Shown here in pieces: positions 22,861 to 45,792 of a stretch of 64,000 nucleotides of DNA. The notes beneath the pieces were generated by a model. That model made no database searches. It worked only from the letters and a program-made list of their open reading frames with translations, and had not been told where the DNA came from. The stretch comes from a phage, in assembly GCA_033286805.1 (NCBI GenBank), contig GCA_033286805.1_4727.1. The stretch is one strand, 5' to 3'. The position numbers and the translations under genes are program-made. Positions within the stretch are counted from its first letter, which is position 1. Every line of letters starts with the position of its first letter.

Positions 22861-25491
22861 TTACAATTCAAAATCTTCATCGATAACACGCTGGGTAAGC
22901 ACTTTGTCGCTGAAGAACTCCACCTTGCGCTGATGGTATTTACGGTGCGCTTCGATAGAAGTACATACCAGATACCAGAACGTTGGCGTCATTCCTTCAA
23001 ACTTCCCTTTCAGCTGACGCAGTCGTCCCAACACCTGAATGTTGCCGGTTCGTGACCCCATCGCTAACGTCATGAACGTCATCACCAAGTCAGGAAGGTC
23101 GATACCGGTACCTGCCGATTTCACGGTTGTAACGCTAATATCGTTATCCAGCAAGACCATGAAATCTTCTTCAGCAGTATAAGGACCGATCTCTAGCTCA
23201 GGAATACGTTCACTGAGATAATGCGACAACGACTTACACATATCAACGGTTGCACAATACACCAGCATCTTCATACCTTCCTGATACTGGTTCATAAAAC
23301 CTTTGATAATAACGGTATAGATGAAGTTAAAGTACGCGAGTTTGAGTTGCTTGTTCTTCATGATAGACTGTTCAAATATCGTGTGCGAATAAGCTCCACC
23401 AAACCCTTTGTATCTGACTTTATCTGTACTGCGTAGTCGATATGTTACCGCATTTACCGCAATGTATTTCTTGTATTCGCCTTTCGCATAACGGGCTTCT
23501 TTCGGATACATCAAATACAGCATCTGTTCGATAAACGGATCATCGGATACCGCTGTTGCCGACAGATAAATGATTTCCGGAATATTGGCGTAACACTTGA
23601 CCTTAAACAAGAAATGCAATGCTTCGTGACACTCGTCATGAATCAGCAAACCTATGCCGGTCTTTTCCCAAAACTCAGCGGGATGGAAGGCATATGGCGC
23701 AACGCAGTTATTCTTCTCGTAGTCCGCAATATAACGTTGGAACATGTTCAAGGAGAACAATGCGATTTTGAAGTCGAGTTCACCCTGTTCAACCAAGGTT
23801 TGAAACTCCAGCATGCTGTAACGAGGAATGTCGGGATGCGGTGGATCCTCCTTAGCGTTCCCGCGTATCTCGATAACATCCCCTGGTTCCATCCCGAAGA
23901 AGTTCAGCAGCGAGCTTCGCCAACCTGGCATATACCGTGGAGAAAGTATAATGCCTGTGCGCACACCCCGTCTAAACACGATTTCCTGCGACATCGCGGT
24001 GTTGTGTGTGACGATAAAGTCTTTCACCACAAACAACGCTGAAGGATCATCGATCGTAATGCAACGTGCATCCGCAACACGGGAAGGTTTGATTGACAGT
24101 ACACGCAGCATACTTTCGAAGTATTGTCCGTCGACAGGACAACGTTCCAGCTTCTTCGGAAGTGTAACGATTTCATGTGGACGTTTATACCGTATCGTAA
24201 CCATGTACGCCAATCGTCCCTTATGTCTTTCCCCCTTGTAGGTGTAATACGGTTGTTTAATACGTAGACGAGCATATCCACCGATCGAACGAACCAAGTA
24301 GATAACGTCATCTGAAAGCTGTTTGCTCGAAGTACAGAAAACAATAGATCCGCCTTTATCTACCGTTCCGTCGGTATCGATAAGACCTGCAAGTATTTCG
24401 CAACGCTGTCTATGCGACGCCATCATGTACTGTTTCGGAACAAACTTCTCCCAGGCTCGTTTACCCATCAACCCCAACTGATCAAGCGCGGATGCTGTCT
24501 CCGACCGCCCACCGTAATTGATTAACGTTGCGGCAGGCGTCTTCGTTACCGCATAGTCGTATTTGTCACGGTACTGTATTTCACAGTCATCAGGAAGACG
24601 ACTTAACACCTTATTCAAGATGAAATCGTCAGGAGTTGTAATGATTGGAGATGTCGTTAAATGACCGTCCCCTAACAGAACACCAAGCACGTACGGATCA
24701 AGCGGTAAATCTGCATCAGGAGTATCCTCAGACTCACAATACGGAATGTAAAGTCGTTTATTGGACAGCTCCAGGATACGAATCATCTCAAGTGTATTGA
24801 TAACCCGCATGGGATAAGGATTGTTTTTGTCCCATCCCCAGTTAGGTCTCATGCACGCCCAGAGATGCTCGCCGCAGGCTTCAACACGACGACCGTCAGC
24901 AAAGACAATCTCATAGAGCTGTTTTGCTTTATGGTCGAAGATATTGGTTACCTTCGTTGGTCGGCCATTAGCAGCCGTGATGGTATCACCTAGCTTCAAA
25001 TCGCCTAATTGACGCCATCCGCCAGGGACTTTTACGAGCGTGGTAAGCGGATTCGCTTTACCAGACCCCGTTTGAGCGGTGTTTAGGCTCATTCTGAAGG
25101 GGGTATCCTTACCCCCGTTCATGTACTCCAGCCATTCTTGTTGATCTTCACGCCACGGAAACTTCCATTTCTTTACGAACTCCACTTCCTTACCTGGTAC
25201 CGGATCGTGATAAACGATTTCCAACCACTCTTTTCGGATTCCTCGAGAGAAGATAAAATCCAAAAACGATTTCAACTGTTCGCGGAGTAAGTATACCTCG
25301 CTATAATCGCTTCTCGCTGCGGCGTAGGTGTTAATGGTATCGGTGACCATTCTCCGTGTACGAGGGTCGCGTCGTTTCCGTAGATGCAAACAACGGTCTC
25401 GAAGGTAATGGCCAATCAAATGGGCAAATCGAAGTCCGTATCCGCTCAGCCTCATGCCATGCGAGAAGACGTCGATACGAGCTAACTTCAT
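22861..25491 (-). CDS. DExH-box SF2 helicase precursor containing an intein
   Basis: Walker A split as TGSGK|...|TAM; after the insertion: DExH LLIHDECHEA, VKSAGTGIDLPDL, motif VI LGRLRQ; ATGA overlap with upstream gene. Confidence 0.75.
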   Translation of the reverse strand: MKLARIDVFSHGMRLSGYGLRFAHLIGHYLRDRCLHLRKRRDPRTRRMVTDTINTYAAARSDYSEVYLLREQLKSFLDFIFSRGIRKEWLEIVYHDPVPGKEVEFVKKWKFPWREDQQEWLEYMNGGKDTPFRMSLNTAQTGSGKANPLTTLVKVPGGWRQLGDLKLGDTITAANGRPTKVTNIFDHKAKQLYEIVFADGRRVEACGEHLWACMRPNWGWDKNNPYPMRVINTLEMIRILELSNKRLYIPYCESEDTPDADLPLDPYVLGVLLGDGHLTTSPIITTPDDFILNKVLSRLPDDCEIQYRDKYDYAVTKTPAATLINYGGRSETASALDQLGLMGKRAWEKFVPKQYMMASHRQRCEILAGLIDTDGTVDKGGSIVFCTSSKQLSDDVIYLVRSIGGYARLRIKQPYYTYKGERHKGRLAYMVTIRYKRPHEIVTLPKKLERCPVDGQYFESMLRVLSIKPSRVADARCITIDDPSALFVVKDFIVTHNTAMSQEIVFRRGVRTGIILSPRYMPGWRSSLLNFFGMEPGDVIEIRGNAKEDPPHPDIPRYSMLEFQTLVEQGELDFKIALFSLNMFQRYIADYEKNNCVAPYAFHPAEFWEKTGIGLLIHDECHEALHFLFKVKCYANIPEIIYLSATAVSDDPFIEQMLYLMYPKEARYAKGEYKKYIAVNAVTYRLRSTDKVRYKGFGGAYSHTIFEQSIMKNKQLKLAYFNFIYTVIIKGFMNQYQEGMKMLVYCATVDMCKSLSHYLSERIPELEIGPYTAEEDFMVLLDNDISVTTVKSAGTGIDLPDLVMTFMTLAMGSRTGNIQVLGRLRQLKGKFEGMTPTFWYLVCTSIEAHRKYHQRKVEFFSDKVLTQRVIDEDFEL
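24001..25056 (-). mobile_element. intein (352 aa) with LAGLIDADG homing-endonuclease domain, Ala-1 / WCT-type (class 3-like)
   Basis: Begins ANPLTTLVKV after GSGK, ends FIVTHN before T; LLGDGHL and ILAGLIDTDG motifs; block B GEHLW, block F Cys (RCITIDD), Thr before HN. Confidence 0.65.
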
Positions 25492-27494: not shown

Positions 27495-27639
27495 TATTGC
27501 TTTCCGATTTAAATGGTTTTATCATACGGTTTACCAAATCCGTTGGACTTTACTATCGTTGTGATAGCATCGGGAATCCCTTCCCTTAGGTTATGTAGGT
27601 GTTAATATATCTCCACTGCTGGCCTTTATGTCGGCAGCA

Positions 27640-28125: not shown

Positions 28126-28239
28126 AATCTCATTTCCTCTTATACGTTAGGATAGATGACATGTTGGATATACGTTGCCTTTGCATATATTGCTTTATTT
28201 CCGTCAGAAATAACGGAAAATAAAAACAACGACATAATT

Positions 28240-28269
28240 CCCTCCCACCTCCACATGGGAGAGGGAGGG
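28240..28269 (-). terminator. hairpin after 28283-28645
   Basis: CCCTCCC...GGGAGGG imperfect stem followed by T-rich tract on minus strand. Confidence 0.45.
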
Positions 28270-28282
28270 TTATTCGTGTTTA

Positions 28283-28645: not shown

Positions 28646-28677
28646 TATGTTTTCCTCAGGTGAATGTTAGCAATCGT

Positions 28678-29103: not shown

Positions 29104-29132
29104 CCTCCTCCCACCACATGGGTAGGAGGAGG
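29104..29132 (-). terminator. hairpin followed by TTTATGCTG variant
   Basis: CCTCCTCC / GGAGGAGG stem after stop of 29144-29554. Confidence 0.45.
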
Positions 29133-29143
29133 CGTAATATGCA

Positions 29144-29554: not shown

Positions 29555-29565
29555 CGTATACCTCG

Positions 29566-31734
29566 TTAGCTTTCGCAGTCATCTGCGTCGATGATTTGTC
29601 CGCCAGCAACGTTCAGTTGATGATACAGAATCCTCAACGCACGGTTGCCGCCAATGGGATACTTCTCGAAGTTGGTCGCAATAGGAATCGCTGACGGTTT
29701 ATCGGTCGCATAGATGCTTTCAGTGATGCTATCCACCTGTTTTGGATTGTTCGCATAATCCATAAAGACGCTTGCGAACCATCCGCCAGCAAAGGCGGTA
29801 ACTTCGCGATGTTCAGATTCACCACAGTAACGAGTTGGTTGCTCTTTACCCGGAGAACTGTATTTATCGCTATTACTGAGTTTCGACGGTAATCCATGCG
29901 CTTGCAGTTTAGGGATGCCCACCGCTGACCAGTCGTTCGCCGTCTTCTCCAACATCATGATGTACGTGTCACCGATCGCAATATCGTTCTTGGTTGTCCG
30001 CCATTGCCCAGAACGTCCACGATACCGTACAGGACCTTTCTTCAACGGGAACTCACGAATCAGATTCTCCATACGTTCTGAACCTGCTGCGATACTGTCC
30101 GTCGGGATATAAACTTCCGTACCGTGGCGCTGTACGTACCGTAAATGATCCCATTTATCCTCATCCGTGATACAGTATTTTTCAACAACCTGTTCCACGA
30201 ACTCAGGACTGACGATATAGTAGTAGCGCATCAGTGTGTTCCAAGCGGTCTCCAGATCGCCTGCATCCATCACCGGTTTCAGTTCACGCATGATCTGATC
30301 ACCAACGCCGTTGATGTACGGTGCGTTAACACGACTTAAACTCATCCTTTTGATTACCGTACTATCGTCGAACATGAAGTCCGCAACGTTACCCCATTGG
30401 TCGACCGGCATTTCATCGTCTTCCATGATGTCGGTTACGACGAATTTATCACCCGCCATACCGGTGAATTTAAACCCGATACCTGGAACGACGTCGTACG
30501 TGTACGTGATGGTCACACGCCAATCATCGAGATTCTCTTTGCGGTAATCGCGAGTCGGTAGCACATGACGTAGCTGTCCGTTGGGATTGCGGATATCAAT
30601 ACCATGTTCAGCATCAGCCAGGTTCAACCACCACATCACCGTTTGATGATGACGTATCGGCGTACCAACGCGTTCACGTTCGTACTTACGAACAGCATCC
30701 TGAATCCGGGTGTAAAGCAAACCGATTGCGTTCTCGTATTTCAGGAATTGACGATACGGAGGACGCATCTTCTCTTCCATCATAATCGCACGCTCGCGGG
30801 CTTGACGTCCAGAACGACGATGTCGATCGCTGACAACATCGATATCCGTTACACGCGCATTCGGTTCCGCGTAAGTGAGGTCATCGTAAACATAATCCAC
30901 GCGCTGAAGATTACACGTCATCATGTCAACAACGCTAAGGATAGGATCGATTTCGCGTGTTGCTGCGAGTAACCCATCCTTACGAATACGCTCACCGTTC
31001 TCGGGTATTGCTTGATATACCTCGTCATCACCGTAGAGATTGATTGGGTATCGCGATTTACCTGACGTGATTGTTCGCTTCTCAATACCGGTACTGGTGA
31101 AATGCTTCAATACACCACGACGGGCAACGCCACCATCTTCAATACACTGATAGAAGCTACCGAAACACACCTTGCAATCGCGACCGTAGCCCCACTCGCG
31201 CGTTTCTTGATTGATCGCTGGGCTTTCCATCAAACGAGAATATCGCGGTACGATCTGGCCTCGACGGAGGGAATGGAACAAGTTGGTTGGTCGAAAACGG
31301 AAACCGTACTGCTGATGCATGATGTGATGCTCAGGCACTTCGAGCAAACGCAGTTCGTGACGGTTACCATCCTCTTGGTTTTCATACAGCACGTAATGCA
31401 TCGTGTTTGTTTTGATGCTGTTTGCTGTATGCCCCGGTTGGAAACGTGGGATGATATCTATGATGCGAGATTCAACTGGAAACTCTACTGACCACGTGTT
31501 CTGTCCGTACTGGTATTCGATCCCCGTCGTCAGTCGGGACGGTTTCGCATCTTTGATAACCAACGCTTGGCTAAGATGTCCACCAAACATCGCAGCGCGC
31601 TGTGCTGAGTTATAATGCAATAGCCCGTTAAGTCCTGTCCCTACGCCAGTATACTCCTGTTTAATGGGAATGATTTTACCTTCAGCGATTGCCTGCTTCA
31701 CAGATTCATAAAGAGGTTTTTCTTTATAATGCAT
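29566..31734 (-). CDS. multisubunit RNA polymerase beta subunit, C-terminal fragment
   Basis: NSAQRAAMFGGHLSQA (cf. ANRALMGANMQRQA), GDKFVVTD...EMPVD...SRVN (cf. GDKMAGRHGNKGV...EDMPYD...SRMN), RYCGESEHREVTAFAGGW (cf. QRFGEMEVWALEAYGA); ATG 31734 with AGGAAG SD, alternative 31899. Confidence 0.65.
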   Translation of the reverse strand: MHYKEKPLYESVKQAIAEGKIIPIKQEYTGVGTGLNGLLHYNSAQRAAMFGGHLSQALVIKDAKPSRLTTGIEYQYGQNTWSVEFPVESRIIDIIPRFQPGHTANSIKTNTMHYVLYENQEDGNRHELRLLEVPEHHIMHQQYGFRFRPTNLFHSLRRGQIVPRYSRLMESPAINQETREWGYGRDCKVCFGSFYQCIEDGGVARRGVLKHFTSTGIEKRTITSGKSRYPINLYGDDEVYQAIPENGERIRKDGLLAATREIDPILSVVDMMTCNLQRVDYVYDDLTYAEPNARVTDIDVVSDRHRRSGRQARERAIMMEEKMRPPYRQFLKYENAIGLLYTRIQDAVRKYERERVGTPIRHHQTVMWWLNLADAEHGIDIRNPNGQLRHVLPTRDYRKENLDDWRVTITYTYDVVPGIGFKFTGMAGDKFVVTDIMEDDEMPVDQWGNVADFMFDDSTVIKRMSLSRVNAPYINGVGDQIMRELKPVMDAGDLETAWNTLMRYYYIVSPEFVEQVVEKYCITDEDKWDHLRYVQRHGTEVYIPTDSIAAGSERMENLIREFPLKKGPVRYRGRSGQWRTTKNDIAIGDTYIMMLEKTANDWSAVGIPKLQAHGLPSKLSNSDKYSSPGKEQPTRYCGESEHREVTAFAGGWFASVFMDYANNPKQVDSITESIYATDKPSAIPIATNFEKYPIGGNRALRILYHQLNVAGGQIIDADDCES

Positions 31735-31765
31735 AGGACTTCCTATTATCGAATTGAGGTACGTC

Positions 31766-32119
31766 ATGTCTAACACGCCCCTGAACGACTTTCTTAAGAC
31801 AAACCCCGATGACCTCATCCACGATCTTGATTTCAGGAACGTTGTTGAGATGCATCTGGAATATTTCAAAAATGCCGGACTGGTCTCTACGATAGACATA
31901 CCACCCGAACGCGCCTACGAATTCGATGGTAACTTTTATGGATTGTGTCGTGTTCTGCTCGGTGAGGGCAGTGAACCAATGCACTGGATAACCATGAGAC
32001 TCAATGGTTATCGCGACCCTACGGAATACACCGCCGATGTTCTAACCATGAGGATTGTCGATACAAGCGCAATCAACACATTAAAACAACAGTACCGCAC
32101 AATCCACTACAGCGCTTAA
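31766..32119 (+). CDS. hypothetical protein
   Basis: 117 aa from ATG 31766 with GAGGT SD; followed by plus-strand terminator hairpin. Confidence 0.4.
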   Translation: MSNTPLNDFLKTNPDDLIHDLDFRNVVEMHLEYFKNAGLVSTIDIPPERAYEFDGNFYGLCRVLLGEGSEPMHWITMRLNGYRDPTEYTADVLTMRIVDTSAINTLKQQYRTIHYSA

Positions 32120-32184: not shown

Positions 32185-33465
32185 TCAGAAACGATTCACA
32201 GTACGTCCTGTCCACGCGCTCAGGATGTTGTTACGTTCCATCTCAGCACGACGACGTAAACCGTTTGGCGACTGCGGTGCTTGCGGCATCCCCCATCCAG
32301 CCGGTTGCATACCCATGCCCGGCCAAGCAGCGTTATTGAACATCGTACCGTTACGTTCCGCAACACGGTTCATCAGCGCATCAAACGTGCTATTACCTGC
32401 CGGTTGGTTACCGCCGCTTTCCCACTGATTAGGTTGGACAGGTGCGGTTTTACCTAACAGGTTATCGATCACACTGCCTGTTGAAGCAGGACGCGGTTGC
32501 ATACCTTCATGTGCAGCTGCTGATGGATTTGGCTTAACCGTCGGCTGCGGACGACTGTTCAGCGTTACACCCATGTTGTATTTCGCTGGCGGAATCTGAC
32601 CACGATGTTGATTGATCGGTTCAAAATCCTCAACCCAGGTAACATCACAATAACCGTTCTCTTTACCGTCGTACTTATCACCAAACAGTTTGATGAGATT
32701 GTTCAGCGGTTCCATCAGCTTAGCGAAGCTGTGGATAAGACAATCGAAATACGGAGCATGAGGATCGCTTGACCCAGCGTTGTACGTTTCGCTTACTTCA
32801 CCCGCGTGCGGGATAACGTACTCAACCAGGTTTCTCAGCATGTTAAGATCTTTCTTGGAAATCTCAACACCACACCAGTACGTTTTCTTATCTTTCGTGC
32901 TGATATGTTCTTCTTCCATGAACGGGAAAGTAACGACCGCAACACGGGTCATCTTCTTACCCATGTAGGTTGCACCAGTACGACGAAGATAAATTTTAGA
33001 CAACGTATACGGTGTGTCACGTTTCAACCAAACGGTGACCAGTTTACCTAACGTCGTTAGCGTTTTATCGCTGGCGTCCGCAAGGATGTTGAAGAACTCT
33101 TTTTGCTTCGGTCCGAAACGTTTTGCTTCTTTAGGGTTGATTGCGGTTTCAACCATCCAAATCAACATGGAGCACAGCGTGGCATTAAAACGAACAACCA
33201 TCGCACGACGCAGGAATTGAAGGACTTCCGATTCGCCGTTCATCACGTCTTCACTTAGCGGATGGAACAGCACACGTTCAGCCAGCTGATTTCCGGTACG
33301 GACTTCGGAAACCGGCATAAGCAACGGCATGCTTTCCACGGTAGCGGCAACTGCAACAACTTTACCATCCCCATCCGTAAAACGATATTCTAATTCGTGG
33401 GCGTCATTCTCAAAATAGTTAACGCTCTGTAGTGCTTTGCGATAAGCTTCGATAAGCTTCGACAT
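32185..33465 (-). CDS. hypothetical protein with low-complexity G/P/Q-rich C-terminus
   Basis: 426-aa ORF. Confidence 0.5.
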   Translation of the reverse strand: MSKLIEAYRKALQSVNYFENDAHELEYRFTDGDGKVVAVAATVESMPLLMPVSEVRTGNQLAERVLFHPLSEDVMNGESEVLQFLRRAMVVRFNATLCSMLIWMVETAINPKEAKRFGPKQKEFFNILADASDKTLTTLGKLVTVWLKRDTPYTLSKIYLRRTGATYMGKKMTRVAVVTFPFMEEEHISTKDKKTYWCGVEISKKDLNMLRNLVEYVIPHAGEVSETYNAGSSDPHAPYFDCLIHSFAKLMEPLNNLIKLFGDKYDGKENGYCDVTWVEDFEPINQHRGQIPPAKYNMGVTLNSRPQPTVKPNPSAAAHEGMQPRPASTGSVIDNLLGKTAPVQPNQWESGGNQPAGNSTFDALMNRVAERNGTMFNNAAWPGMGMQPAGWGMPQAPQSPNGLRRRAEMERNNILSAWTGRTVNRF

Positions 33466-33520: not shown

Positions 33521-35107
33521 TTAGAAGTTGCCTTTGGTAGTTACCGCATCCACCAGGTTAAACAAATCAACGCTCAGCTTATACACCTCCTGCTGGCTAC
33601 GGTTGAGCAGCGGACTGTATGCAGATGGGTTGATGTTCGGCATGGTGTACGGAATCGGTGCAGAACCGTCAACGCTGATCTTGAACTGGCTGTCCAGGAA
33701 CAGGTTAATCGCGCCGCTCACCATAACCGCATTCGGGTTGTTGCCCAACATGGAGGGTAGGATATTGGTAATCATGTCAGAACGCATTTGTTCAGCAGCA
33801 CGGTTACAATCGTATCCTTTAATGAACGGTACTGCGTCGGTAACCGCAACCGCCCACTGACCTGGCATGATACCGAGTTCTGGGTGACCATGGTTGTCAG
33901 CAATGAAACGGAACGATTCCAACATGCGATACGTCATCGCAGCAGGCATCATTGCAGCAAGCGATGAACAATACAGCGTTGGATAATCGATCACATCCCA
34001 GCTCTGGCTGTCGGTCGGCATCCAACCAAACTCGGTGGTTGCTGATGTACCACGACGAGCTTCCACATACGGGAATAACGTTAAGACGTCACGGATATGT
34101 TCACCGAACATCCGTTTCATGTCAGCCCAACTCAGGCTACCGCTGAAAGCGAATCCTTCATCACGCATAATCGCACCGAATACCGGATGCGCAACCAACG
34201 GTTCTTCACGAACAGCTTGAGCGGCTTCCACGTAAATATCCTCGTTCTCTGCGCTACCTGGATGAGACCCGCTTTCGTACGTCTGACGAATAGCTCCAAC
34301 ATTATCGAAGGCTTTTCTCAGATAGATGGTTGGGATGTTCGTATCGGCACTAGCGGGTTTGATTTTCTCTGTCGCGAAACACATTGCTGCTTCCACACCA
34401 CGGAAAACCGGTTCCGGTTGCGGTGGATAGGATGTACGATGAACCACATCAGCGTAGGCTGGATCGAACTGTTGCATCACGTTCTGCATGGCTGGGTCCA
34501 TGAACTGGTTATCAAAACCACCATTACCTACCCAACGTGCTGTTGATGCATAGGTCAGCGTATCCTGAACACGAGTACTGAACTGAACATCACGATTAAC
34601 AGGGTCGTATGCGCCGGTCAACAGGTTCGTTGCGTCCATCGGGGTCGCGCGAACGATTTGCTTACCGAACATATCTGTCGTGGTTGTTTCGGTTACCTGG
34701 ATTACGTTCGTGAAGAAGAACACCAGTTCATTCGGCAGATCGATAGCACGCGTTGTAAACGCATCGAGGCTTACAGAATGGTCGGTGTATCCAGAAATGT
34801 AATGGACACGCTTGGTTCCTGGTGCAAGGGCCAAGGATTCTTCTACCGCCATCATGAAATGGAAACGGCGTGTGCCCCAACCATTCGCAATCTCCGAAAC
34901 CCCCTCAGGTTCTGCAGACTGCTGCAACAAACCGGTTGCAAGCTTATTGATTGCTGATGGTGTTGTTGCCGTACCGAACCGCGTCGTGTTAATAAAGTCT
35001 TCGATGCTACGCATGCTATCTGCGTGGAATCGTAGTGGACGACGTTGTACGTTGTTGTACGGTGCGGTTTCAACCATCAGTATTTCACGAACATTCATCG
35101 GGATCAT
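33521..35107 (-). CDS. hypothetical protein
   Basis: 528-aa ORF, no recognised motif. Confidence 0.55.
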   Translation of the reverse strand: MIPMNVREILMVETAPYNNVQRRPLRFHADSMRSIEDFINTTRFGTATTPSAINKLATGLLQQSAEPEGVSEIANGWGTRRFHFMMAVEESLALAPGTKRVHYISGYTDHSVSLDAFTTRAIDLPNELVFFFTNVIQVTETTTTDMFGKQIVRATPMDATNLLTGAYDPVNRDVQFSTRVQDTLTYASTARWVGNGGFDNQFMDPAMQNVMQQFDPAYADVVHRTSYPPQPEPVFRGVEAAMCFATEKIKPASADTNIPTIYLRKAFDNVGAIRQTYESGSHPGSAENEDIYVEAAQAVREEPLVAHPVFGAIMRDEGFAFSGSLSWADMKRMFGEHIRDVLTLFPYVEARRGTSATTEFGWMPTDSQSWDVIDYPTLYCSSLAAMMPAAMTYRMLESFRFIADNHGHPELGIMPGQWAVAVTDAVPFIKGYDCNRAAEQMRSDMITNILPSMLGNNPNAVMVSGAINLFLDSQFKISVDGSAPIPYTMPNINPSAYSPLLNRSQQEVYKLSVDLFNLVDAVTTKGNF

Positions 35108-35108: not shown

Positions 35109-36695
35109 TTATTTTTTTCCTCTTAAATTTACTACGTGTTCATTTAATCGAACAACTAATTGCACAAGCTGCTGACGGATATCTGCTGGACAAAGCATCA
35201 ATCCTTTACGATCAGCTGGGACTTTCTCAAGGATTTCCGGGCCTGCTGCTGAAACATCCCAGTCCCATTCACAAAACGCATCGGCCACCATGTTAATACC
35301 GACAACCGGTAAAGTTGTACGTTCATCTTCATACATGGCGTGTGGATACAATTTATTGACAGTAATGATCTCCTGTGGTTTTAATTGGTGGATAATCTGA
35401 TAAACATCGTCGCGTTTAACCTGGATACCTACGGTCAGCGCTGCTAGTTGAGGAAAACCCCAATGGTCTAATAAGCAAGCTGCGATCGCTAACGCTTTTG
35501 CTTGATGCACGGCTTCAATCGGTGCCAGACTTCTCGCCGGAAGATGGCTATCAAGCAACCATTGTGCCAGTGCTCGGCATCCACGGTTGATTGGTTTTAA
35601 CTCAACGGTGTCATCATGTTTAGCGTACGTGTATCCGTCGTAACGTTTTGCGATACGCGCATACATGTCTTCAACTTTACCGTAAGGTGCTGTTTCGTCG
35701 ACGTCGTGTAACACACGTTCCATCTGGGTAAGATACGCAATGTCGAGAATGAGTACACGTGGTGAACGTTTATCTTTCACCATCAACGCATCAATCACGC
35801 CTTGACTATCTTCATCTTGCGCGTTCCCTCGCGGGGTTTTCTCACGAATCGGTCCGCTGAAACGTCGTTCCGTACAAAGGTTATTCACATAGCTAAAGAT
35901 CAGTGTTACCAGATGCGTACAACTCACCAACACCCCATCTTTAACGACAGGCTGTACGGCTTGGTCCAAGTCGCGTACGGCGAGGCGGCGGACGATGGCT
36001 TGTGAACGCAACCAGCCGGGCACTTTCTCCGTCGACATGTAATCCACGGTCATCGACAGTGTGATCTTTTTATCACCCGTCTGTGCGCGGATATAGTCTT
36101 CCAGTCGGTCGTAAGCGGCGATATCATGGATGCGTGTTTTATACATCAACGACATGGCCACTTCTTCTTTACGGACTGTCCCGTACGTTTTCCCTGCGTC
36201 AATCAGAAACTCTGCCCAAATCGGCACCATCAGACGGACGTAGATCGCTAACGCTGTTAACTCAACGTAATCATTTCGTAAATAGGTTTTCTCAGGTATG
36301 TCATCCTCACCTAATGTTGTTTTCATGTCTGGTGGTAATTTTACCCAACCTGGGGTATTACACAACGCCAGAATCTCTTCATACACAACCGGTTTGTAAA
36401 TTTCACCAACAGCGCGACTCAACTCCTCCATTTGTTGTTGTGGAGCAATGTAGTTATCCATCGCTTCACGTGCTTTAACGAACCCTTCGAAGATGTCGTC
36501 AATTCGACGTGGGTTCTTTTGTTCTATCCAGGCGAGATACTTGTTAATCTCCCGCATCTGATTGCTAGCCATATCCCCATCAATCTTGATGTAACCCTGA
36601 CCTGAAAATTCTACAGTACGTCCATCACGATGTTTGATGAGATAGTGATCCAGCTTTTCTTTTCCTTGCGTCGTAATGACGGGCACTATGTGCAT
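35109..36695 (-). CDS. hypothetical protein (early-promoter-driven)
   Basis: Start set to ATG 36695 (MHIVPVITT) with AGAGG SD; track N-terminal extension would lie upstream of the promoter motif. Confidence 0.55.
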   Translation of the reverse strand: MHIVPVITTQGKEKLDHYLIKHRDGRTVEFSGQGYIKIDGDMASNQMREINKYLAWIEQKNPRRIDDIFEGFVKAREAMDNYIAPQQQMEELSRAVGEIYKPVVYEEILALCNTPGWVKLPPDMKTTLGEDDIPEKTYLRNDYVELTALAIYVRLMVPIWAEFLIDAGKTYGTVRKEEVAMSLMYKTRIHDIAAYDRLEDYIRAQTGDKKITLSMTVDYMSTEKVPGWLRSQAIVRRLAVRDLDQAVQPVVKDGVLVSCTHLVTLIFSYVNNLCTERRFSGPIREKTPRGNAQDEDSQGVIDALMVKDKRSPRVLILDIAYLTQMERVLHDVDETAPYGKVEDMYARIAKRYDGYTYAKHDDTVELKPINRGCRALAQWLLDSHLPARSLAPIEAVHQAKALAIAACLLDHWGFPQLAALTVGIQVKRDDVYQIIHQLKPQEIITVNKLYPHAMYEDERTTLPVVGINMVADAFCEWDWDVSAAGPEILEKVPADRKGLMLCPADIRQQLVQLVVRLNEHVVNLRGKK

Positions 36696-36750
36696 AACAA
36701 CCTCTTTTCGCGGTTCCCTGTTAAAACGTCTTCTGTGACGTCTACCACAA

Positions 36751-36772
36751 AGGTAATATAAGCGTGAATAAT
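36751..36772 (-). promoter_or_regulatory. early-promoter-like motif copy 2
   Basis: Minus-strand ...CACGCTTATATTACCTTT ~56 nt upstream of ATG 36695. Confidence 0.4.
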
Positions 36773-36899
36773 TTTGGATTCCGGCTGAGTTATCGCTCAG
36801 CATGCAAGGCATCCCGCCGAAGCGAGACACCTTGCACTAACGGAAAATATTCGCGTTACCTTCTGAATCGAAGACTCAGAATGCGATACTAAAGCATCA

Positions 36900-37688
36900 T
36901 TAGAATGCTAAACCATCAAAGGCGATTGACGGATCATCGTCGTCATTTGCGCTAGGCGCGTCCCAACGTGTGTCAGGGGCTGCTGAAGCCGAACTTGAGG
37001 CATTAGAGTTACCGTTGTACTGGCCGTTACCAGCATTACGGTTACCGCCACCGTTGTTATTGTTACGATTGTAGCTGTTGTTACCATTGCTTACGCTACG
37101 ACTTTCACCGTCAAAGTTGGTTGCGAGGATGCTTGGTAACACCGCACGATGGATACGTACGAATTCCAGCGCACAAAGCGGAGAAACAACACCGATCTGC
37201 AAAGGTTGTCCAGACTCATCAACCAAAGCGTGGAAACGCGGCGGTTTGAACACGAATTGGATGTTCGGTTTTTGGTACGCGGTTACCGCGATGTACACCG
37301 AACCATCGTCATTCTTACCCACCCACGTTGTGCTCTCGGTAATCTGCTTTTTCTTACCTGGGTTATTGCGATCATCGATAACCTTTTCGTTCTTCATCGC
37401 AAAGCGTTGACCAGGTTTACCCTTAGCAACCTGCTCGAGGATCGCAAGCAGGTTATAGAACGCGTATGAGCTCATGCGTGCCCAAATGCTTTCAGCGCGA
37501 CCCTGCTGGTCTTTACGACCGGTGTAAACCGTGATACGCGGTTGATTCTTAGCAACGCTAATTTTCAATGAGGGGACTGAATTACCGCCCTCAACCTTTT
37601 CGTCCGCCCACAGTTTCCAGTTGTTGTCGTCATACGCTGTAGGAATAATGTTTCCTTGTGGTTTACTGCCCGAATTCCAATTGCTCAT
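36900..37688 (-). CDS. putative ssDNA-binding-like protein (N/G-rich linker, acidic C-terminal tip)
   Basis: C-terminus NGNNSYNRNNNNGGGNRNAGNGQYNGNS...DDDDPSIAFDGLAF resembles SSB linker and acidic tail; fold unverified. Confidence 0.35.
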   Translation of the reverse strand: MSNWNSGSKPQGNIIPTAYDDNNWKLWADEKVEGGNSVPSLKISVAKNQPRITVYTGRKDQQGRAESIWARMSSYAFYNLLAILEQVAKGKPGQRFAMKNEKVIDDRNNPGKKKQITESTTWVGKNDDGSVYIAVTAYQKPNIQFVFKPPRFHALVDESGQPLQIGVVSPLCALEFVRIHRAVLPSILATNFDGESRSVSNGNNSYNRNNNNGGGNRNAGNGQYNGNSNASSSASAAPDTRWDAPSANDDDDPSIAFDGLAF

Positions 37689-37761
37689 TTTCAGCCTCGT
37701 TACGTAGTGTGAATCAATTTCTGGTTCAGATGATAGTTAATATTAGTTAAAAATTACAGCC

Positions 37762-39721: not shown

Positions 39722-40503
39722 CAGAATTCCTCTAGGTTGCTGCTGCTAATAGTCCCCGTCGTAGACGGCATGTTTCTACTGCTCGCTGACGCAGTTGTTG
39801 AAGAAGTTCTGGCTAGATTCAATCCATTTAATAACCCACGCTCTTTTACTGTACGACGTGAACCATCACGAACGTCGTAAAGGGGTACGTTATAATGGTC
39901 AAAAATCCGAAGCCATTGCACGTAATCAGCAACAACATGGTCTTTGCTTTCATTCGGGGCAAAGCGATCAAGCTGATGGTCGACGTAAGCTTTAGCGCTT
40001 TCAGGATTGAAGTTATACTGTCGACGTGCTTTGTCCACCATCGCGAGGAAACACGTGTTGGGGTCACGATTGATGTATGAACGCGTCCTGATAAAGATAG
40101 CCGGTACCGTAAACAGAACCTTGTTGTTATTCCCATCAGCAACGATGTTAACCGCACGATGTGGTTGGCCTGCTATCTTGCACCAATCGTGAACAATGGT
40201 GCTATTACTCAGCATCTCCGCGTATTCAGGATCCTGCGAAAACATTCCTGCGAACGGATACAAGAAATGTTTAACAAACAGCGACTCAGGCAGGATGTTG
40301 GGACGCGTCATCTCCTGTAAACCTTTTCGTAGAAGCTCGCTGTTGTCTACCAGCTCCTGCCACATGTCCGGTCGTGTTTTCGGGATGGACGGATCCTGAG
40401 CGCGGCGAATGCGCTCTTCCTCATTTACAACCACTACCCCAGCCGGATACCCCAATAAATCCGTTCCTTCGCTAACGTTGCTGTTAGTTTGGCGCGCCTT
40501 CAT
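39721..40503 (-). CDS. hypothetical protein
   Basis: 260-aa ORF. Confidence 0.5.
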   Translation of the reverse strand: MKARQTNSNVSEGTDLLGYPAGVVVVNEEERIRRAQDPSIPKTRPDMWQELVDNSELLRKGLQEMTRPNILPESLFVKHFLYPFAGMFSQDPEYAEMLSNSTIVHDWCKIAGQPHRAVNIVADGNNNKVLFTVPAIFIRTRSYINRDPNTCFLAMVDKARRQYNFNPESAKAYVDHQLDRFAPNESKDHVVADYVQWLRIFDHYNVPLYDVRDGSRRTVKERGLLNGLNLARTSSTTASASSRNMPSTTGTISSSNLEEF

Positions 40504-40891
40504 TTACTTCCTCCTGCCACTTGATAAAATTACCACGCTCGGATCGCAGAACACCGCCCAAATCGTACGATATACCTTTCTCTGTGACAATCCCACCAAT
40601 CTGGAGATCAACACGTTCCGTCGTCGGATCGATATACTTGACACGGACTTTCAATTCCACGCGATCGTAATAACGCATTAAATAATCATACAACATCCGG
40701 TATGTCGCATCTTCCAATTTGGGTGCGCTATACTGCGATGTTGCAATGAGGTACGGTAGTGAAACGATAGAGCCTTGGTAGCAATACGACTGGGAATAAT
40801 TCGATATTGCAAAATTGGTCATTAATCCATCCAGCTTTTTTCCCGACGCGGTTAAAAAGCTCGACAGTCCCGGTAACGGATTCGATGCCAT
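40484..40891 (-). CDS. hypothetical protein
   Basis: 135-aa ORF. Confidence 0.45.
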   Translation of the reverse strand: MASNPLPGLSSFLTASGKKLDGLMTNFAISNYSQSYCYQGSIVSLPYLIATSQYSAPKLEDATYRMLYDYLMRYYDRVELKVRVKYIDPTTERVDLQIGGIVTEKGISYDLGGVLRSERGNFIKWQEEVNEGAPN

Positions 40892-40904
40892 GAGGAACTC
40901 CTCT

Positions 40905-41444
40905 TTAAGCGTAATTCATTCCAACCAATCTATCGTAGTTAGGCATATGCCCTAACTCCAGTTCGACGGGCATGGATACATTGGTGCGTGGCGCGTAAAA
41001 TGTTCGCGTATGCATATCGATATACCCACAGTCCAAATAAACAATATCGGACAACTCCGCTGGATGTTTAGGTGCGGGAATCTTTAAGCGATTGTAACAC
41101 TCAAGCTGCCACCAGGCATGAAAAAAGTTATTGTAGGCGTACGATTTACTGTTGGCAACTTTAAGTCCGTAGATCACCCATAACGCCGCCATGAAGTTGG
41201 TCGCGTTAATTCGCATCGGTTGTTCATTATTGAGCATGTGCGTGTAGGTAAACAACGGTGTGTTACCATCACCGAAACGTCCGACTAAGGTATTGTTCGT
41301 GTGTTCGACCTCAAAGGAAAAATGCTGGCTGCTATTGCCATCAAAATGGATCATTCCGTTCTCCTCAAGCTTTTTCATTTCATAGAGTGGTGGAAATTCG
41401 TAGAAAGTTACAAAAATAAAAAAGAATGGGCAGCCCCTCCCCAC
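40905..41444 (-). CDS. hypothetical protein
   Basis: 179-aa ORF. Confidence 0.45.
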   Translation of the reverse strand: MGRGCPFFFIFVTFYEFPPLYEMKKLEENGMIHFDGNSSQHFSFEVEHTNNTLVGRFGDGNTPLFTYTHMLNNEQPMRINATNFMAALWVIYGLKVANSKSYAYNNFFHAWWQLECYNRLKIPAPKHPAELSDIVYLDCGYIDMHTRTFYAPRTNVSMPVELELGHMPNYDRLVGMNYA

Positions 41445-41460
41445 CCGAAGGTAGGGAGAG
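41436..41460 (-). terminator. hairpin after 41474-41938
   Basis: CCTCCC...GGGAGAG stem followed by T-rich run on minus strand. Confidence 0.45.
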
Positions 41461-41473
41461 ACCGCAAATATAC

Positions 41474-41938
41474 TTAAACCAAAGCTGCGATAACGTCGTT
41501 AACATTACGGCCTCGCAACTCTGCCGCTAAACGAATAACCTCATCCAGGGAACGGTTTGTACGAATCTTGGCCACTTTCCAATTTTCAGGATACTGTTCG
41601 AAGTTAAGCAACCAAGTCATTACCTTTGCTTGTTCCATACCGTTGAGTTTGATTGTCGTGCGCGGATTGGCTTTGAACCACTTCTTGCTCAGCTGCGCCA
41701 TACGGCGAACAGGGTAAGCGTAAGCGCGAGTCCAGTCTTTGGACAGATTGTCGAGTAATTCACGGTAGCTGCTGTCGTAGTCTTTGTTGATACGACGTAA
41801 TAACCAGTTGGCGGTCATCTGGTAAAGTTTATCATCTTCACGTAACCGCATACCCGCTACTGCTAAATAAATGATAAGACCTGCGCCCAGGATGAGAGAC
41901 AGGATAAACAGAATTTGGGTTTCTTGTGCTAAAGTCAT
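41474..41938 (-). CDS. membrane protein (N-terminal TM helix)
   Basis: ILFILSLILGAGLIIYLAVAG hydrophobic segment; early-promoter-like motif upstream. Confidence 0.5.
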   Translation of the reverse strand: MTLAQETQILFILSLILGAGLIIYLAVAGMRLREDDKLYQMTANWLLRRINKDYDSSYRELLDNLSKDWTRAYAYPVRRMAQLSKKWFKANPRTTIKLNGMEQAKVMTWLLNFEQYPENWKVAKIRTNRSLDEVIRLAAELRGRNVNDVIAALV

Positions 41939-42024
41939 TTTATTATCCTCGGATTTCGTTAGGATTTAATTTCCAATATAAGGGCAATGTGATATGCCTT
42001 ATACAGTCGATTGATGTTGTACAT

Positions 42025-42050
42025 CACTTAAGTAATATAGCCGTGAAAAA
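42025..42050 (-). promoter_or_regulatory. early-promoter-like motif copy 3
   Basis: Minus-strand TTTTTCACGGCTATATTACTTAAGTG upstream of 41474-41938. Confidence 0.45.
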
Positions 42051-42057
42051 TGTTGGA

Positions 42058-42855
42058 TTAACGTGTTCTCCTATCACGATGCGTATACGACTGAAGACCG
42101 ATGTCCATATGCGGTAACGTCAGCGTCTGCCAGATCTGTCGTGCGTAGCGATCGAGCGTATGATCATCAGTAACACAATCGACGGGTTCGATGAGGTGAG
42201 TCGTATACTGGCTTTTCTCAGAGAAAGGTTCGATGTTAGCTGTATCTCCTAATCCGCTTTTCACCGTGAAGACAAGACGTGTGACTATCATCGCCTTATG
42301 TTGCTGTTCGTTATAACGAAGGCTGCGGTATACGGCATAGCTTCCTCCTTTTAGGCTTCGGGTATAACGAAGGTCGGAGGTCGTCTCGGAAATCTGATAC
42401 AGCATCCAGTCCAACGTATCACGCCAGTACGCATCATCCACATCAGGAACCGTGATACCGTATCGCGTAGGCAGCAGTTCTAAAAGCAATTTATAAAGTC
42501 CGCGACGCAGACCATGCTCTTCTGTTTCCGATAAACCGTTTCCAACGTAACGTGAAATACGCGTACGTAAATACGTACGGATGAACATATTCGCCATCAG
42601 TGTTTTCACTCTGCTACTTGTATCCTCAAAGCGATCAACGCTGAAACTCGTTTCAATCAGCCGTCCATTAAAATACAATGCGGCAACATACATCGCGTTA
42701 TTGCTATCACGTTCAATGTTTAAACGACCGCAGATATTGGCTGCGTCGTTCATGGTAAATTCTAATTTATCGTGTTCGATACGATAGATAATATCCTCTT
42801 GGGTTGCCAGGCTCGCAATGCGACGGTAGCCCGGAGAAGTACGTTTTACACTCAT
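42058..42855 (-). CDS. hypothetical protein
   Basis: Start set to ATG 42855 (MSVKRT) with GAGGA SD; track start 42894 is the ATG inside the TTTATGCCG motif. Confidence 0.5.
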   Translation of the reverse strand: MSVKRTSPGYRRIASLATQEDIIYRIEHDKLEFTMNDAANICGRLNIERDSNNAMYVAALYFNGRLIETSFSVDRFEDTSSRVKTLMANMFIRTYLRTRISRYVGNGLSETEEHGLRRGLYKLLLELLPTRYGITVPDVDDAYWRDTLDWMLYQISETTSDLRYTRSLKGGSYAVYRSLRYNEQQHKAMIVTRLVFTVKSGLGDTANIEPFSEKSQYTTHLIEPVDCVTDDHTLDRYARQIWQTLTLPHMDIGLQSYTHRDRRTR

Positions 42856-42897
42856 GATTGTCCTCGTTTTCAATTTTAAGATTGCATGCGGCATAAA

Positions 42898-42922
42898 CCC
42901 TCCCCGCCTTATGCAGGGAGGG
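42898..42922 (-). terminator. GC-rich hairpin followed by TTTATGCCGC motif
   Basis: CCCTCCC / GGGAGGG stem after stop of 42938-43576. Confidence 0.5.
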
Positions 42923-42937
42923 TAGCCATTAAATGGA

Positions 42938-43576
42938 TTAACCTAATTTACCACCGGCGATGTTGGTGAAATCTTCGCCATCAGGAACTTGCAGTAGGAT
43001 ACGTGCCATGTCCCAGTTGGTTAATGTAATTGCTTTATCATCGATACTCAGTTCTGGTAGGTCGAGTTCATGATCATCAAACTCGTAGGAAATACTCCAC
43101 GTTTCGTCTGTTTTAGGATCGGTTATCAACACACCGTCTGTTACACGCATGTAGTCCGGATGCAATTCATTACTGAATGTGCTGAACGGATCGGTGTAAC
43201 ACTCAGCATACCCCTCGATCTGCTGACGCTGTGCCTTCGTACGTAATTCAGGGCACGCCATGATCAGTTGTCGAGATATGCCGTTTGCAGCACGGAAGTC
43301 TTCCACGGTGTTACATGGCATAACCACATCGTCATGGAAGATGTTCTCCGATTGTCTCAGCAAAGTCTTACGGAGTTCAGCATAGTTTATCTGATTGAAT
43401 GCATCGAACGTTGCTAACGATTCAGCGTAAAAATGCTTTACGTGTTCGCTCGCGCCGCCGAGGCTATTCATCAACTTGTGTCCATACTCCATGAAGCTTT
43501 TATCGAGACCGGAGGACATTTCTCCGAACCTCAGTGCACGATAACTGTCTCGTCCACCTGTAAATATTTGCGCCAT
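42938..43576 (-). CDS. hypothetical protein
   Basis: 212-aa ORF. Confidence 0.5.
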   Translation of the reverse strand: MAQIFTGGRDSYRALRFGEMSSGLDKSFMEYGHKLMNSLGGASEHVKHFYAESLATFDAFNQINYAELRKTLLRQSENIFHDDVVMPCNTVEDFRAANGISRQLIMACPELRTKAQRQQIEGYAECYTDPFSTFSNELHPDYMRVTDGVLITDPKTDETWSISYEFDDHELDLPELSIDDKAITLTNWDMARILLQVPDGEDFTNIAGGKLG

Positions 43577-43591
43577 TACAGGCGTCCTCCT

Positions 43592-43816
43592 TTAGCAATG
43601 GTTGTTAGTTGCTTCTATTTCGTCAAGATAAGGTTCTACGTCATCGCCCTCCACGAATTCGTTGAACCAACAGTCAATGGTAGAAATAACCGGTGACTGG
43701 TGTTCACATTTCTTAGATACCTTAAAAGGTACGTTATTATCCATCATACCGAGTTCGGGTCGGAATCTCCCGAAATGTTTCGCAGTCCAAATGTCTGGGA
43801 CGATATGGTTGTTCAT
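43592..43816 (-). CDS. RNA polymerase beta-prime N-terminal fragment, proposed exon 3
   Basis: Translation MNNHIVPD...GMMDNNVPF matches the bacterial beta-prime segment directly after NADFDGD (QMAVHVPL...ALMMSTNNILSP). Confidence 0.5.
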   Translation of the reverse strand: MNNHIVPDIWTAKHFGRFRPELGMMDNNVPFKVSKKCEHQSPVISTIDCWFNEFVEGDDVEPYLDEIEATNNHC

Positions 43817-44173
43817 CAATATCTTCAATACGAATCGCTACTTCGTATCCGCAGCATTACCTGCAGCTCCTGGTGTTACCAGGATGTTGAGAGTATATCA
43901 TGTCCATATTCCAAATGGAACGTAGGACTTCCGCGCTGGATCTCGCTTGAGACCGCTTACTCGTTGAACGTTCTCCTAAACGGAGCTTCGCTGCTGATTG
44001 GACATTGTTACGTACGGTAGGCGTCCCATTAAAGGGATTTTCATTGAAGCCGCGTACATCCGTTACCTTGTTTCTACCTTATCGGTTCCTCTTACGAGGC
44101 GTAACGGCTTTAGCCTATTCCAGCAATTCACGGAATGCATATTCTCCTTTTCAGGAGATAAGGCCATGGCTCT
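43817..44173 (-). ncRNA. intervening sequence 2 (putative self-splicing intron, group I-like; boundaries approximate)
   Basis: Paralog of IVS1: shared 3' end ...CCTGGTAACACCAGGAGCTGCAGGTAATGCTGCGG...GAAGATA..G and hairpins with compensatory changes; ends in G. Confidence 0.4.
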
Positions 44174-44191
44174 GGCATCACCGTCAAAGTC
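44174..44191 (-). CDS. RNA polymerase beta-prime proposed micro-exon 2 encoding DFDGD(A)
   Basis: Minus-strand GAC TTT GAC GGT GAT GCC; in-frame TGA three codons upstream so it cannot be reached by read-through from exon 1. Confidence 0.45.
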
Positions 44192-44541
44192 CACGTATCT
44201 TCAGTATGGTTCGCTACTCCATACCCGCAGCATTACCTGCAGCTCCTGGTGTTACCAGGACGGAGAGATCATCTCATCACCCACGAAGGGTGTTCCGCGC
44301 TACCCTCAGCGAATTCGAGGGACATGATCGTTGAACCTTCCACCGATAATCGGCGGCTAGGCTGCTGATTGAACATTGTACGTTGGGGTGGCATCCTGGT
44401 GCAGGACTGTCGTTGAAGCCTCCCAACATCCACTCACTTATTTCCGCCTTATCGGCTCCCACAAGGGCAGAGTGGCTTTAGCCCGTCTCAGCAATTCACG
44501 GAATTCAAGCTCTTCCTTTCGGAAGGCAGGGCCTCATTTGA
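44192..44541 (-). ncRNA. intervening sequence 1 (putative self-splicing intron, group I-like)
   Basis: 350 nt between ...GYNA codon (ends in U) and DFDGD codons; ends in G; multiple hairpins conserved by covariation with IVS2. Confidence 0.45.
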
Positions 44542-45792
44542 AGCGTTGTATCCCTTAAGGATCATCACGCTTAACCCGATGGTGTTATCCTGCGGATCGC
44601 GTTTAACCTTGGTGATTTCAAGACATTGGTTACTGCTTCGGTCAAGTGATGGGTTTCGAACAAAGCCGCACACAATCCCATCGAACGGTGTATCAGCAAT
44701 AAGCTCATCGTGCAGCTCGCTCATCATCGGATGATAATTACGGACATGTTCCGCAACGAACGCACGTGCCGCTCTTGGCGAATAACCACGATGGAATAAC
44801 TTGGATTGGATATGTTCTTTATTGGTTAAAGTAAATGGTGCGTATGGGAAATGCAGATGATAATAACGATGGTTCGCTGTTATCGAACTGATTACAGTAC
44901 GCGTGGTGAATGGATGTAATGTACCTAATATGTTTTTACGTGTGATACCTTTCTTCTTACCGATGAACTCATCGAAAATTGCTGCGTGGTATTGCAGTAG
45001 CTTCAGTTGTACTTTCGCCATCCAGTTTTCTTTCTTTCTGGCGCTCAAAGGTGTTGTTGGGTGATAGATACTATTCAACGTACCGATAGCATCGATCGCA
45101 CCTTCCATTTTGCTATCTGCATAACGACCGGTCGGCGTATTTTCGATAACGAACATCATGGCCGCAGGAAAGCTGATATACTGACTGAAGAACTTATCAC
45201 GATGGATACGGATGAATTCTCGTAGCGTGTCAACTTTCTCCGTGTTCTTCGGTCCACGTAACGTGGGTCCTTTATACAAGATCTCCATGATACGATCGAA
45301 GTTCTGTATAAAGCTATTTACGCCACGTCGTATCCCGAATGCATCAAATTGCTGCTCTAGATAGTTCTTGAGTTCAATGGGTCGTTTTACATTTGGACGG
45401 TAACTGGCATCAATGAGCCACGTCATCGTTTCAAAGCTTTTGATATTCAACTCGCTTGCCAGCACGAGATGGACCAACGGGTTAATGAACGCATCGATTC
45501 CTTCAGGGACACGCGCCCAGACCGTCGAACGAATCTCTTGTTCTGCTGGGTAGGTTACAACCGTTTTACAGTTTGGACACACCGTGCCGAGTAGCTCACC
45601 ACGATTGTAGAAACCACAACCACATTGTGGTGTGATATCCAACGTATCGCTGGAGTAAACACGGGTGATAAAACTGTTTAATTTCTTCTTCTCTTCGACG
45701 ACTTTTGTATCGTAATCATTCAACAAAATCGGCGTAAAAGGAAGTTCTGCGAGCTGTCTATCGAAACTCACGATATCGAGCATGATGGCCAT
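44542..45792 (-). CDS. RNA polymerase beta-prime N-terminal fragment, exon 1
   Basis: Zinc-binding CGCGFYNRGELLGTVCPNCKTVV (cf. [23 protein letters not shown]), GKKKGITRKNILG...TRTVISS (cf. [23 protein letters not shown]), ends ...VMILKGYNA; AGGAG SD. Confidence 0.65.

Follow-up and report, generated by a model that had tools for sequence, protein, structure and literature searches.

How could an RNA polymerase be made from a gene that appears to stop short of its own catalytic centre? This question is raised by a stretch of phage DNA of 64,000 nucleotides (contig GCA_033286805.1_4727.1 of the NCBI GenBank assembly GCA_033286805.1; "the window" below means this whole stretch). A first-pass annotation, made from the letters alone, had recognized three open reading frames (ORFs) for parts of a split multisubunit RNA polymerase (RNAP), and one of them, at 44542-45792, was taken as the N-terminal zinc-binding part of beta' (beta' N). 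Treated as the whole gene, this ORF does not include the catalytic motif NADFDGD. In the present study, we found that the gene has three exons, that it continues to 43592, and that the missing motif is supplied in large part by a middle exon of only 18 nucleotides (nt). We are confident in reading the window as containing the genes for four of the five subunits that make up the non-virion RNAP (nvRNAP) of a Goslar-like, nucleus-forming Escherichia coli jumbo phage, with a beta' N gene that is interrupted by two self-splicing introns.

Escherichia phage vB_EcoM_Goslar (Goslarvirus, a nucleus-forming member of the Chimalliviridae with E. coli as the host) was the sole phage matched by a megablast search with positions 25000-46000 (96.8% identity). 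The whole window is collinear with positions 125083-189116 of the Goslar genome (NC_048170) at 96-97% nucleotide identity, with two structural differences only. In the phage collection, an isolate closer than Goslar was not found; the IMG/VR contig 3300011560_000001 is about 97% identical to the window. The subunit composition of the nvRNAP and the roles of the subunits have been described for phage phiKZ (PMC8287921, PMC7598289), in which gp68 is a sigma-like fifth subunit on which both assembly and promoter binding depend (PMC8287921).

The beta' N gene and its micro-exon

We identified the subunits by using PHROG families and phmmer searches against PDB sequences. The mechanical beta' N ORF (44488-45792), which encodes 434 amino acid residues (aa) and ends in ...SLNSVNC, matched the phiKZ gp55 chain 7OGP_A with E 1.1e-60 and has a zinc motif (CGC...CPNC) at aa 57-75. 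Unspliced, it spans residues 41-437 only of this 508-aa chain, which the PDB names 'PHIKZ055 ... PHIKZ056.1', that is, as an exon fusion. The boundary 44542 proposed earlier coincides exactly with the final base of exon 1; it is neither the end of the ORF (44488) nor the end of the gene. The collinearity with Goslar breaks exactly at 44543, where 406 bp of the window (44137-44542) take the place of 1496 bp in Goslar, in which a group I intron has been annotated together with the HNH gene gp186.

When exon 1, the micro-exon, and exon 3 (Table 1) are joined, the product reads GYNADFDGDAMNNH, which matches the intronless homologues P0002 and P0003 (...KGYNADFDGDAMNHH...) and phiKZ gp55 (NADFDGDQLN). 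The spliced protein is 497 aa long, and the intronless homologues, with the same motif, are 496 and 491 aa long. The match to 7OGP_A improved from the value given above for exon 1 alone to E 8.6e-75 over residues 41-495, with NADFDGD in register, and exon 3 corresponds to phiKZ gp56.1 (tblastn, E 4e-5). By this gene model, the universally conserved, catalytic Mg2+-binding Asp triad of beta' is encoded on an 18-nt exon between two ribozymes. The predicted junctions in the spliced RNA are ...AACGCU/GACUUUGACGGUGAUGCC/AUGAACAAC (slashes mark splice sites here and below), and the predicted tryptic peptide that spans the junctions is GYNADFDGDAMNNHIVPDIWTAK.

The micro-exon is under purifying selection. 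The stretch that starts with the K codon and ends with the A codon behind DFDGD has 33 nt, 8 of which (24%) differ between the window and Goslar; the other 12 nt of the 45-nt segment are identical. All eight differences, which lie near the splice sites, are at third codon positions and synonymous. The flanking parts differ by about 2%, with 24 differences in 1200 nt of exon 1 and 5 in the 225 nt of exon 3. Because the micro-exon has changed only synonymously, we conclude that it is translated. The clustering of these changes suggests either co-conversion from diverged donors in the course of homing or selection to evade endonucleases. Splicing in all five Goslar-like genomes (the window, Goslar, and three metagenomic relatives) predicts one identical peptide, KGYNADFDGDAMNNH, despite 8-9 synonymous changes.

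For this protein to be made, both introns would have to self-splice from the beta' N pre-mRNA, probably in GTP-initiated reactions. Exon 1 (...GYNA), the DFDGDA micro-exon, and exon 3 (MNNH...) would then be joined, and the catalytic NADFDGD Mg2+-binding loop would be rebuilt. As the phage nucleus is where transcription takes place, the splicing is presumably free of ribosomes.

The two introns

At gathering thresholds, no Rfam RNA family was found in the whole window. In E-value mode, in which the search covered the 1.4-kb region, RF00028 (Intron_gpI) matched twice, in both cases on the coding strand and over the full length of the model (1-253): at 44552-44245 (intron A; 26.4 bits, E 2.6e-4) and at 44189-43869 (intron B; 28.0 bits, E 8.9e-5). 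The two introns are paralogues of about 70-78% identity and share near-identical 3' terminal hairpins. Intron A does not occur in Goslar; the same element is present in an IMG/VR contig (L011). Intron B is the orthologue of a second, unannotated Goslar intron (G2), to which it is about 95-97% identical from 44136 downwards.

The structure of the intron RNA is conserved. RNAalifold on five sequences (A, B, and three G2 orthologues) predicted 109 pairs, of which 105 were counted. In these, 97.9% of the cells are paired, a percentage that is inflated by the fact that the structure was drawn from the same alignment. The count of compensatory changes is not inflated in this way: 30 pairs carry compensatory double changes, compared with 1-2 when the structure was slid and 7.1 +/- 2.2 in shuffled alignments, none of 500 of which reached the observed number. 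One 6-bp helix is wholly replaced in intron A, with its pairing kept. We infer that introns A and B are functional, and this is well supported. They are mobile or formerly mobile selfish elements that are aimed at the most conserved codons of the gene.

The 3' end of both introns is G. At the 5' splice site of intron A, the U at position -1 is paired to G (GCU with the guide GGC). In the case of intron B, position -1 is a C (GCC with GGC), which gives a C-G pair with the guide; the orthologues of intron B in Goslar and in two metagenomic contigs (L006 and L012) have the canonical U (GCT/). As L011 shares the C, it is not a sequencing error. A 5' splice site after GAU (U at -1, in frame) was also considered for intron B and rejected: the residue that is conserved after DFDGD would be lost, no complementary guide was found for such a site, and it is at odds with how intron B aligns with introns A and G2.

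The other polymerase subunits

The three ORFs of the first-pass annotation are all present on the minus strand where it had placed them, and their assignment to beta' N, beta' C, and beta C holds: the respective matches to the chains of 7OGP have E-values of 1.1e-60, 1.3e-86, and 1e-85. Profile searches likewise led to RNAP families and not to unrelated ones (PHROG 'RNA polymerase beta subunit' families, E 1e-115 to 1e-180). Pfam hardly recognizes these subunits: no match was obtained for either beta' part, and beta C had a sub-threshold Rpb2_6 match only.

The beta' C protein matched 7OGP_D (gp74) over residues 11-654 and phrog_3015 with E 5e-170, and it has GMRG at aa 204 and CTTCYG at aa 341. 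The mechanical beta C ORF (29566-31899) matched 7OGP_C (gp71-73) and, weakly, E. coli beta residues 1063-1241; thus, it represents the C-terminal part of beta. tblastn with gp71 and gp73 gave adjacent matches at 31638-30451 and 30411-29602. In the numbering of the long ORF, GDK is at 483, SRVN at 522, and GESE at 693. Most of the motifs reported earlier are therefore there; the exact pattern 'A.EA.G' is not, and the sequence at its expected place is GESEHREVTAFAGGW. The true gene is likely to be 29566-31734, judging from its start, which coincides with that of Goslar gp171 and has AGGAAG upstream. It is uninterrupted in the window and in Goslar.

The fourth gene encodes the sigma-like subunit. 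Its mechanical ORF (35109-36830) has a GTG start at 36830; the ATG at 36695, which gives 528 aa as in Goslar gp175, is the likely start. phiKZ gp68 matched the window by tblastn (E 2e-35), and the predicted protein matched 7OGP_B/9RJS_B ('PHIKZ068') with E 5e-28 over residues 68-563. The gene also occupies the gp68 position of the phiKZ gene order.

The fifth subunit, the N-terminal part of beta (beta N), had been supposed to be encoded either by one of the unassigned large ORFs or outside the window. The latter proposal agrees with our searches; the former does not, in that the large ORF at 35109-36695/36830 is the gp68 homologue. Two further large ORFs on the minus strand, 33521-35107 and 32185-33465, were rejected as candidates since they are homologues of gp69 and gp70, which are not RNAP subunits (tblastn). 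In the 64-kb window, tblastn with gp123, the phiKZ beta N, found nothing at E <= 0.01, and the best match of Goslar gp039 had E 0.12. In Goslar, beta N is gp039 ('polymerase', 39828-41624; E 2e-53 to gp123). Its gene is two genes away from that of the major head protein, an arrangement shared with phiKZ, and precedes the position at which the window starts by about 85 kb. The absence of beta N concerns the window and not the phage, because the near-identical Goslar has the gene at that place. We expect the beta N gene of this phage to lie outside the window, near the gene for the major head protein.

Alternative readings

Jumbo phages of this kind have a second enzyme, the virion-packaged RNAP (vRNAP; gp178/149/180/80 in phiKZ), and both enzymes consist of split beta/beta' homologues with similar motifs. 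The window genes could on that account belong to the vRNAP, and the first-pass annotation had held that the two enzymes cannot be told apart from sequence. They are, however, distinguishable by orthology and synteny. We extracted the phiKZ nvRNAP set (gp55, gp68, gp71, gp73, gp74, and gp123) and the vRNAP set (gp178, gp180, gp80, and gp149) from the annotated record. By BLASTP, the window subunits matched their nvRNAP paralogues with E 1e-33 to 1e-95 (1.6e-95 for beta' C and gp74, with no vRNAP match for this subunit), and nothing better than E ~1 was obtained with gp178, gp180, gp80, or gp149. The comparison with both sets, which had been suggested earlier, therefore returned nvRNAP matches only. 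tblastn with gp80 and gp149 gave nothing in the window; the Goslar homologue of gp80 is gp078, at 88 kb, outside the window. The genes also lie within the conserved chimallin/nvRNAP block. From the nvRNAP-only BLASTP matches and the complete gp50-gp75 synteny, we assign the polymerase genes of the window to the non-virion enzyme, and we regard a vRNAP as extremely improbable. By analogy with phiKZ, the subunits would be made from early transcripts, the five-subunit enzyme would assemble without alpha or omega, and it would transcribe the middle and late phage genes within the chimallin shell.

Granted the non-virion enzyme, its beta' N gene could still be unspliced, with a 434-aa product that ends at 44488 and has no Asp triad, an independent gene at 43592-43816, and introns that are decayed remnants. 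The end of the mechanical ORF, the separate entries gp247 and gp185 in the Goslar RefSeq record, and the sub-threshold Rfam scores would all fit such a view. However, an nvRNAP that lacks NADFDGD would have no catalytic activity, and the view does not account for a DFDGDA micro-exon that stands in frame exactly between two intron cores, for eight of eight substitutions being synonymous, or for the 30 compensatory changes that keep the intron helices; moreover, phiKZ gp55 is a proven exon fusion. We consider the unspliced gene highly improbable. A third reading accepts splicing and lets the segment 44541-43817 be removed in one step, from the 5' site of A to the 3' site of B, with GYNA/MNNH as the main product. 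Cross-reaction between paralogues with such similar terminal hairpins is conceivable, and the skipped product is in frame. Exon skipping has reportedly been seen with the tandem group I introns of phage Twort. It is also reported for engineered tandem introns (PMC10136302). Against this, the skipped protein would be without all three catalytic aspartates, and the exclusively synonymous changes in the micro-exon show that this exon is translated. As the main product, the skipped form is very unlikely; exon skipping may occur as a by-product.

Several points weigh against our own reading, that is, a beta' N gene with two self-splicing introns in an otherwise typical nvRNAP set. The splicing of introns A and B in this phage is a prediction from DNA sequence. 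Both introns score below the Rfam gathering score (26.4 and 28.0 bits vs 50). The 5' splice site of intron B follows a C and has C-G in place of the near-universal U.G wobble, and in studies on the Tetrahymena ribozyme C-G at this site reportedly slowed the first splicing step. ONT-cappable-seq detected no splicing of phiKZ introns under the conditions tested (PMC10914365); the spliced phiKZ gp55 protein is what was solved in 7OGP. Finally, the placement of beta N elsewhere in the genome depends on collinearity with Goslar.

Genomic context

The gene order on the minus strand reproduces phiKZ gp50-gp75 (tblastn and the phiKZ record; Table 1), and the same chimallin/nvRNAP gene block is found in PhiPA3 (PMC11077065).

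Table 1. Polymerase genes, intron elements, and neighbouring genes of the window in phiKZ gene order
Feature	Position	Strand	phiKZ counterpart	Goslar counterpart	Remarks
Divergent family-B DNA polymerase	49196-51349		gp50		From Pfam
Chimallin	45885-47780		gp54		From Pfam
nvRNAP beta' N gene	43592-45792	-	gp55	gp247 + gp185	Three exons
beta' N exon 1, 417 codons	44542-45792	-			With zinc motif; ends GGA TAC AAC GCT (GYNA)
Intron A, group I, 350 nt	44192-44541	-			Without ORF; ends ...ACGTG
Micro-exon, 18 nt	44174-44191	-			GACTTTGACGGTGATGCC; GAC TTT GAC GGT GAT GCC = DFDGDA
Intron B, group I, 357 nt	43817-44173	-		Intron G2	Without ORF; ends ...ATATTG
beta' N exon 3, 225 nt	43592-43816	-			74 codons + stop; ATG AAC AAC CAT...; MNNHIVPD...NNHC, stop
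SbcD-like protein			gp65		
Homologues of gp66 and gp67			gp66, gp67		
nvRNAP sigma-like fifth subunit, 528 aa	35109-36695	-	gp68	gp175	Likely start
Homologues of gp69 and gp70			gp69, gp70		
nvRNAP beta C-terminal subunit, 722 aa	29566-31734	-	gp71-73	gp171	Likely start
nvRNAP beta' C-terminal subunit, 668 aa	25488-27494	-	gp74	gp165	
Helicase			gp75		

By position, the ORF at 36900-37688 (minus strand) is the counterpart of phiKZ gp67, and gene order would link it to PhiPA3 gp61 (the RNA-binding protein ChmC). By collinearity, the ORF at 55740-56720 (minus strand) corresponds to Goslar gp234, the tubulin PhuZ. ARAGORN found no tRNA in the window.

The gp75-like SF2 helicase (ORF 22861-25491) contains an in-frame insertion of 1062 bp (354 aa) at 23995-25056 on the minus strand, which is not present in Goslar and splits the Walker A motif (GSGK/T). 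A LAGLIDADG homing-endonuclease domain was recognized in it by Pfam (E 2e-6), and it shows the hallmarks of an intein: the first residue is Ala and not Cys or Ser, GEHLW (block B) and RCITID (block F) are found, the insertion ends with THN, and Thr is at +1. We take these hallmarks to be the WCT pattern of class 3 inteins.

Insertion sites in related phages

In Goslar, the locus (L001 24529-27817; 167622-170910 of the record) reads ...GAC TT/intron G1/C GAC GGT GAC GCT/intron G2/ATG..., with a micro-exon of 13 nt. Intron G1 scores 46.9 bits in Rfam and carries the HNH gene gp186 in a terminal stem (ACGTGCACCGAC...GTCGGTGCACGT). The RefSeq annotation stops gp247 where the first intron begins and lists gp185, which is really exon 3, as a separate hypothetical gene; it includes neither the micro-exon nor G2. 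The arrangement of A and B is shared by the window and L011. The other two metagenomic relatives, L006 (Logan) 1448-2590 and L012 (IMG/VR) 4224-5365, have three introns and two 13-nt micro-exons, in the order ...GGG T/intron X/AT AAT GCA GAT TT/intron G1/C GAC GG. GA. GCT/intron G2/ATG..., and their G1 is without the HNH gene. P0001, a protein cluster with 159 member sequences, represents a gene call that runs from exon 1 into intron X. The Goslar-like genomes thus have four insertion sites within 31 nt.

Other chimalliviruses have single introns at further sites in this motif: phiKZ (L002 19167-20539) and KpGz_1 (L016 4715-5192) after AAT, and Erwinia phage pEa_SNUABM_54 (L017 4746-6109) after GGT (DFDG/). 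The 3' end of the phiKZ intron resembles the family of A, B, and G2, and so does the 5' part of the pEa_SNUABM_54 intron, as judged from its translated start only. Among 290 phage records, the beta' N match is uninterrupted (at least 80% of the query) in 259, so that about one in ten is interrupted or truncated. Our literature search did not find tandem introns or a micro-exon described in Goslar-type RNAP genes, although such a description may exist in print.

The four sites in Goslar-like genomes, to which phiKZ/KpGz_1 and pEa_SNUABM_54 add no fewer than two, lead us to a tentative proposal, which we do not favour strongly: the 31 nt that encode Y-NADFDGD-A might be an arena of competition among introns and homing endonucleases, in which intron A confers immunity and the splicing of two ribozymes is ordered. 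Inserted 5 nt upstream of the G1 site, intron A would disrupt the presumed target of the Goslar HNH endonuclease and might, speculatively, protect the phage. Such immunity to attack of the gp186 type would be the reverse of the interference weapon of PhiPA3 gp210, which provides a model for intron-mediated competition of co-infecting phages (PMC11620839). With a catalytic micro-exon, two paralogous ribozymes, of which one has a non-canonical C-G pair at its 5' splice site, would also need to splice in order and independently of ribosomes in the phage nucleus.

Significance

The polymerase itself is known: it is the expected chimallivirus nvRNAP, and its orthologues in Goslar have already been annotated. 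The way in which the introns are arranged is new, but it varies a familiar theme, as introns at conserved codons of chimallivirus RNAP genes are also known. What our analysis adds is a corrected beta' N gene model with three exons, the recognition of the gp68-like subunit, and a hotspot of intron insertion. In this essential enzyme, the catalytic aspartates would be encoded on a micro-exon of 13-18 nt between two ribozymes. The annotation of Goslar, an experimental model phage, is corrected with respect to gp247, gp185, the micro-exon, and the second intron, and recombinant expression of a Goslar-type nvRNAP would need the spliced 497-aa sequence. The arrangements A+B, G1 with HNH+G2, and X+G1+G2 form a natural allele series for tests of intron competition and immunity in an E. 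coli system.

Comparison with known systems

Goslar has the same genes in the same order (gp165, gp171, gp175, and gp247+gp185), and it shares intron B/G2 and exon 3 with the window. Its first intron is unrelated to intron A, contains the HNH gene gp186, and lies 5 nt further downstream, whereas the window has the ORF-less intron A after GCT. The putative intein in the neighbouring helicase gene of the window is likewise absent from Goslar.

The subunits of the phiKZ nvRNAP (7OGP/7OGR/8QUE/9RJS) are orthologous to those of the window at 24-32% identity, and their genes stand in the same order beside chimallin. The introns of phiKZ gp56, gp72, and gp179 were predicted in 2002 (PMC10914365). In phiKZ, too, an intron breaks up the NADFDGD codons of the beta' N gene; it is a single one, which carries the HNH gene gp56 and follows AAT. 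The phiKZ beta C gene has an intron with gp72, and the beta C orthologue of PhiPA3 has an intron as well (gp65-66); in the window, in contrast, beta C is free of introns and both ORF-less introns are in beta' N. In PhiPA3 gp210 (Birkholz et al. 2024, PMC11620839), a group I intron is inserted at conserved Asp codons of a chimallivirus RNAP gene. Its host gene is the one for vRNAP beta, and it encodes an active nicking endonuclease, whereas the introns of the window are in the nvRNAP beta' gene and are without an endonuclease.

Other phages, too, have genes with several self-splicing group I introns near active-site codons; orf142 and nrdE of Staphylococcus phage Twort are examples. Introns of this kind also occur in the Bastillevirinae (PMC11878797). 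The introns of the window and of the Goslar-like phages differ from those in such multi-intron genes in that they are only 13-18 nt apart, and the catalytic motif itself is a micro-exon.

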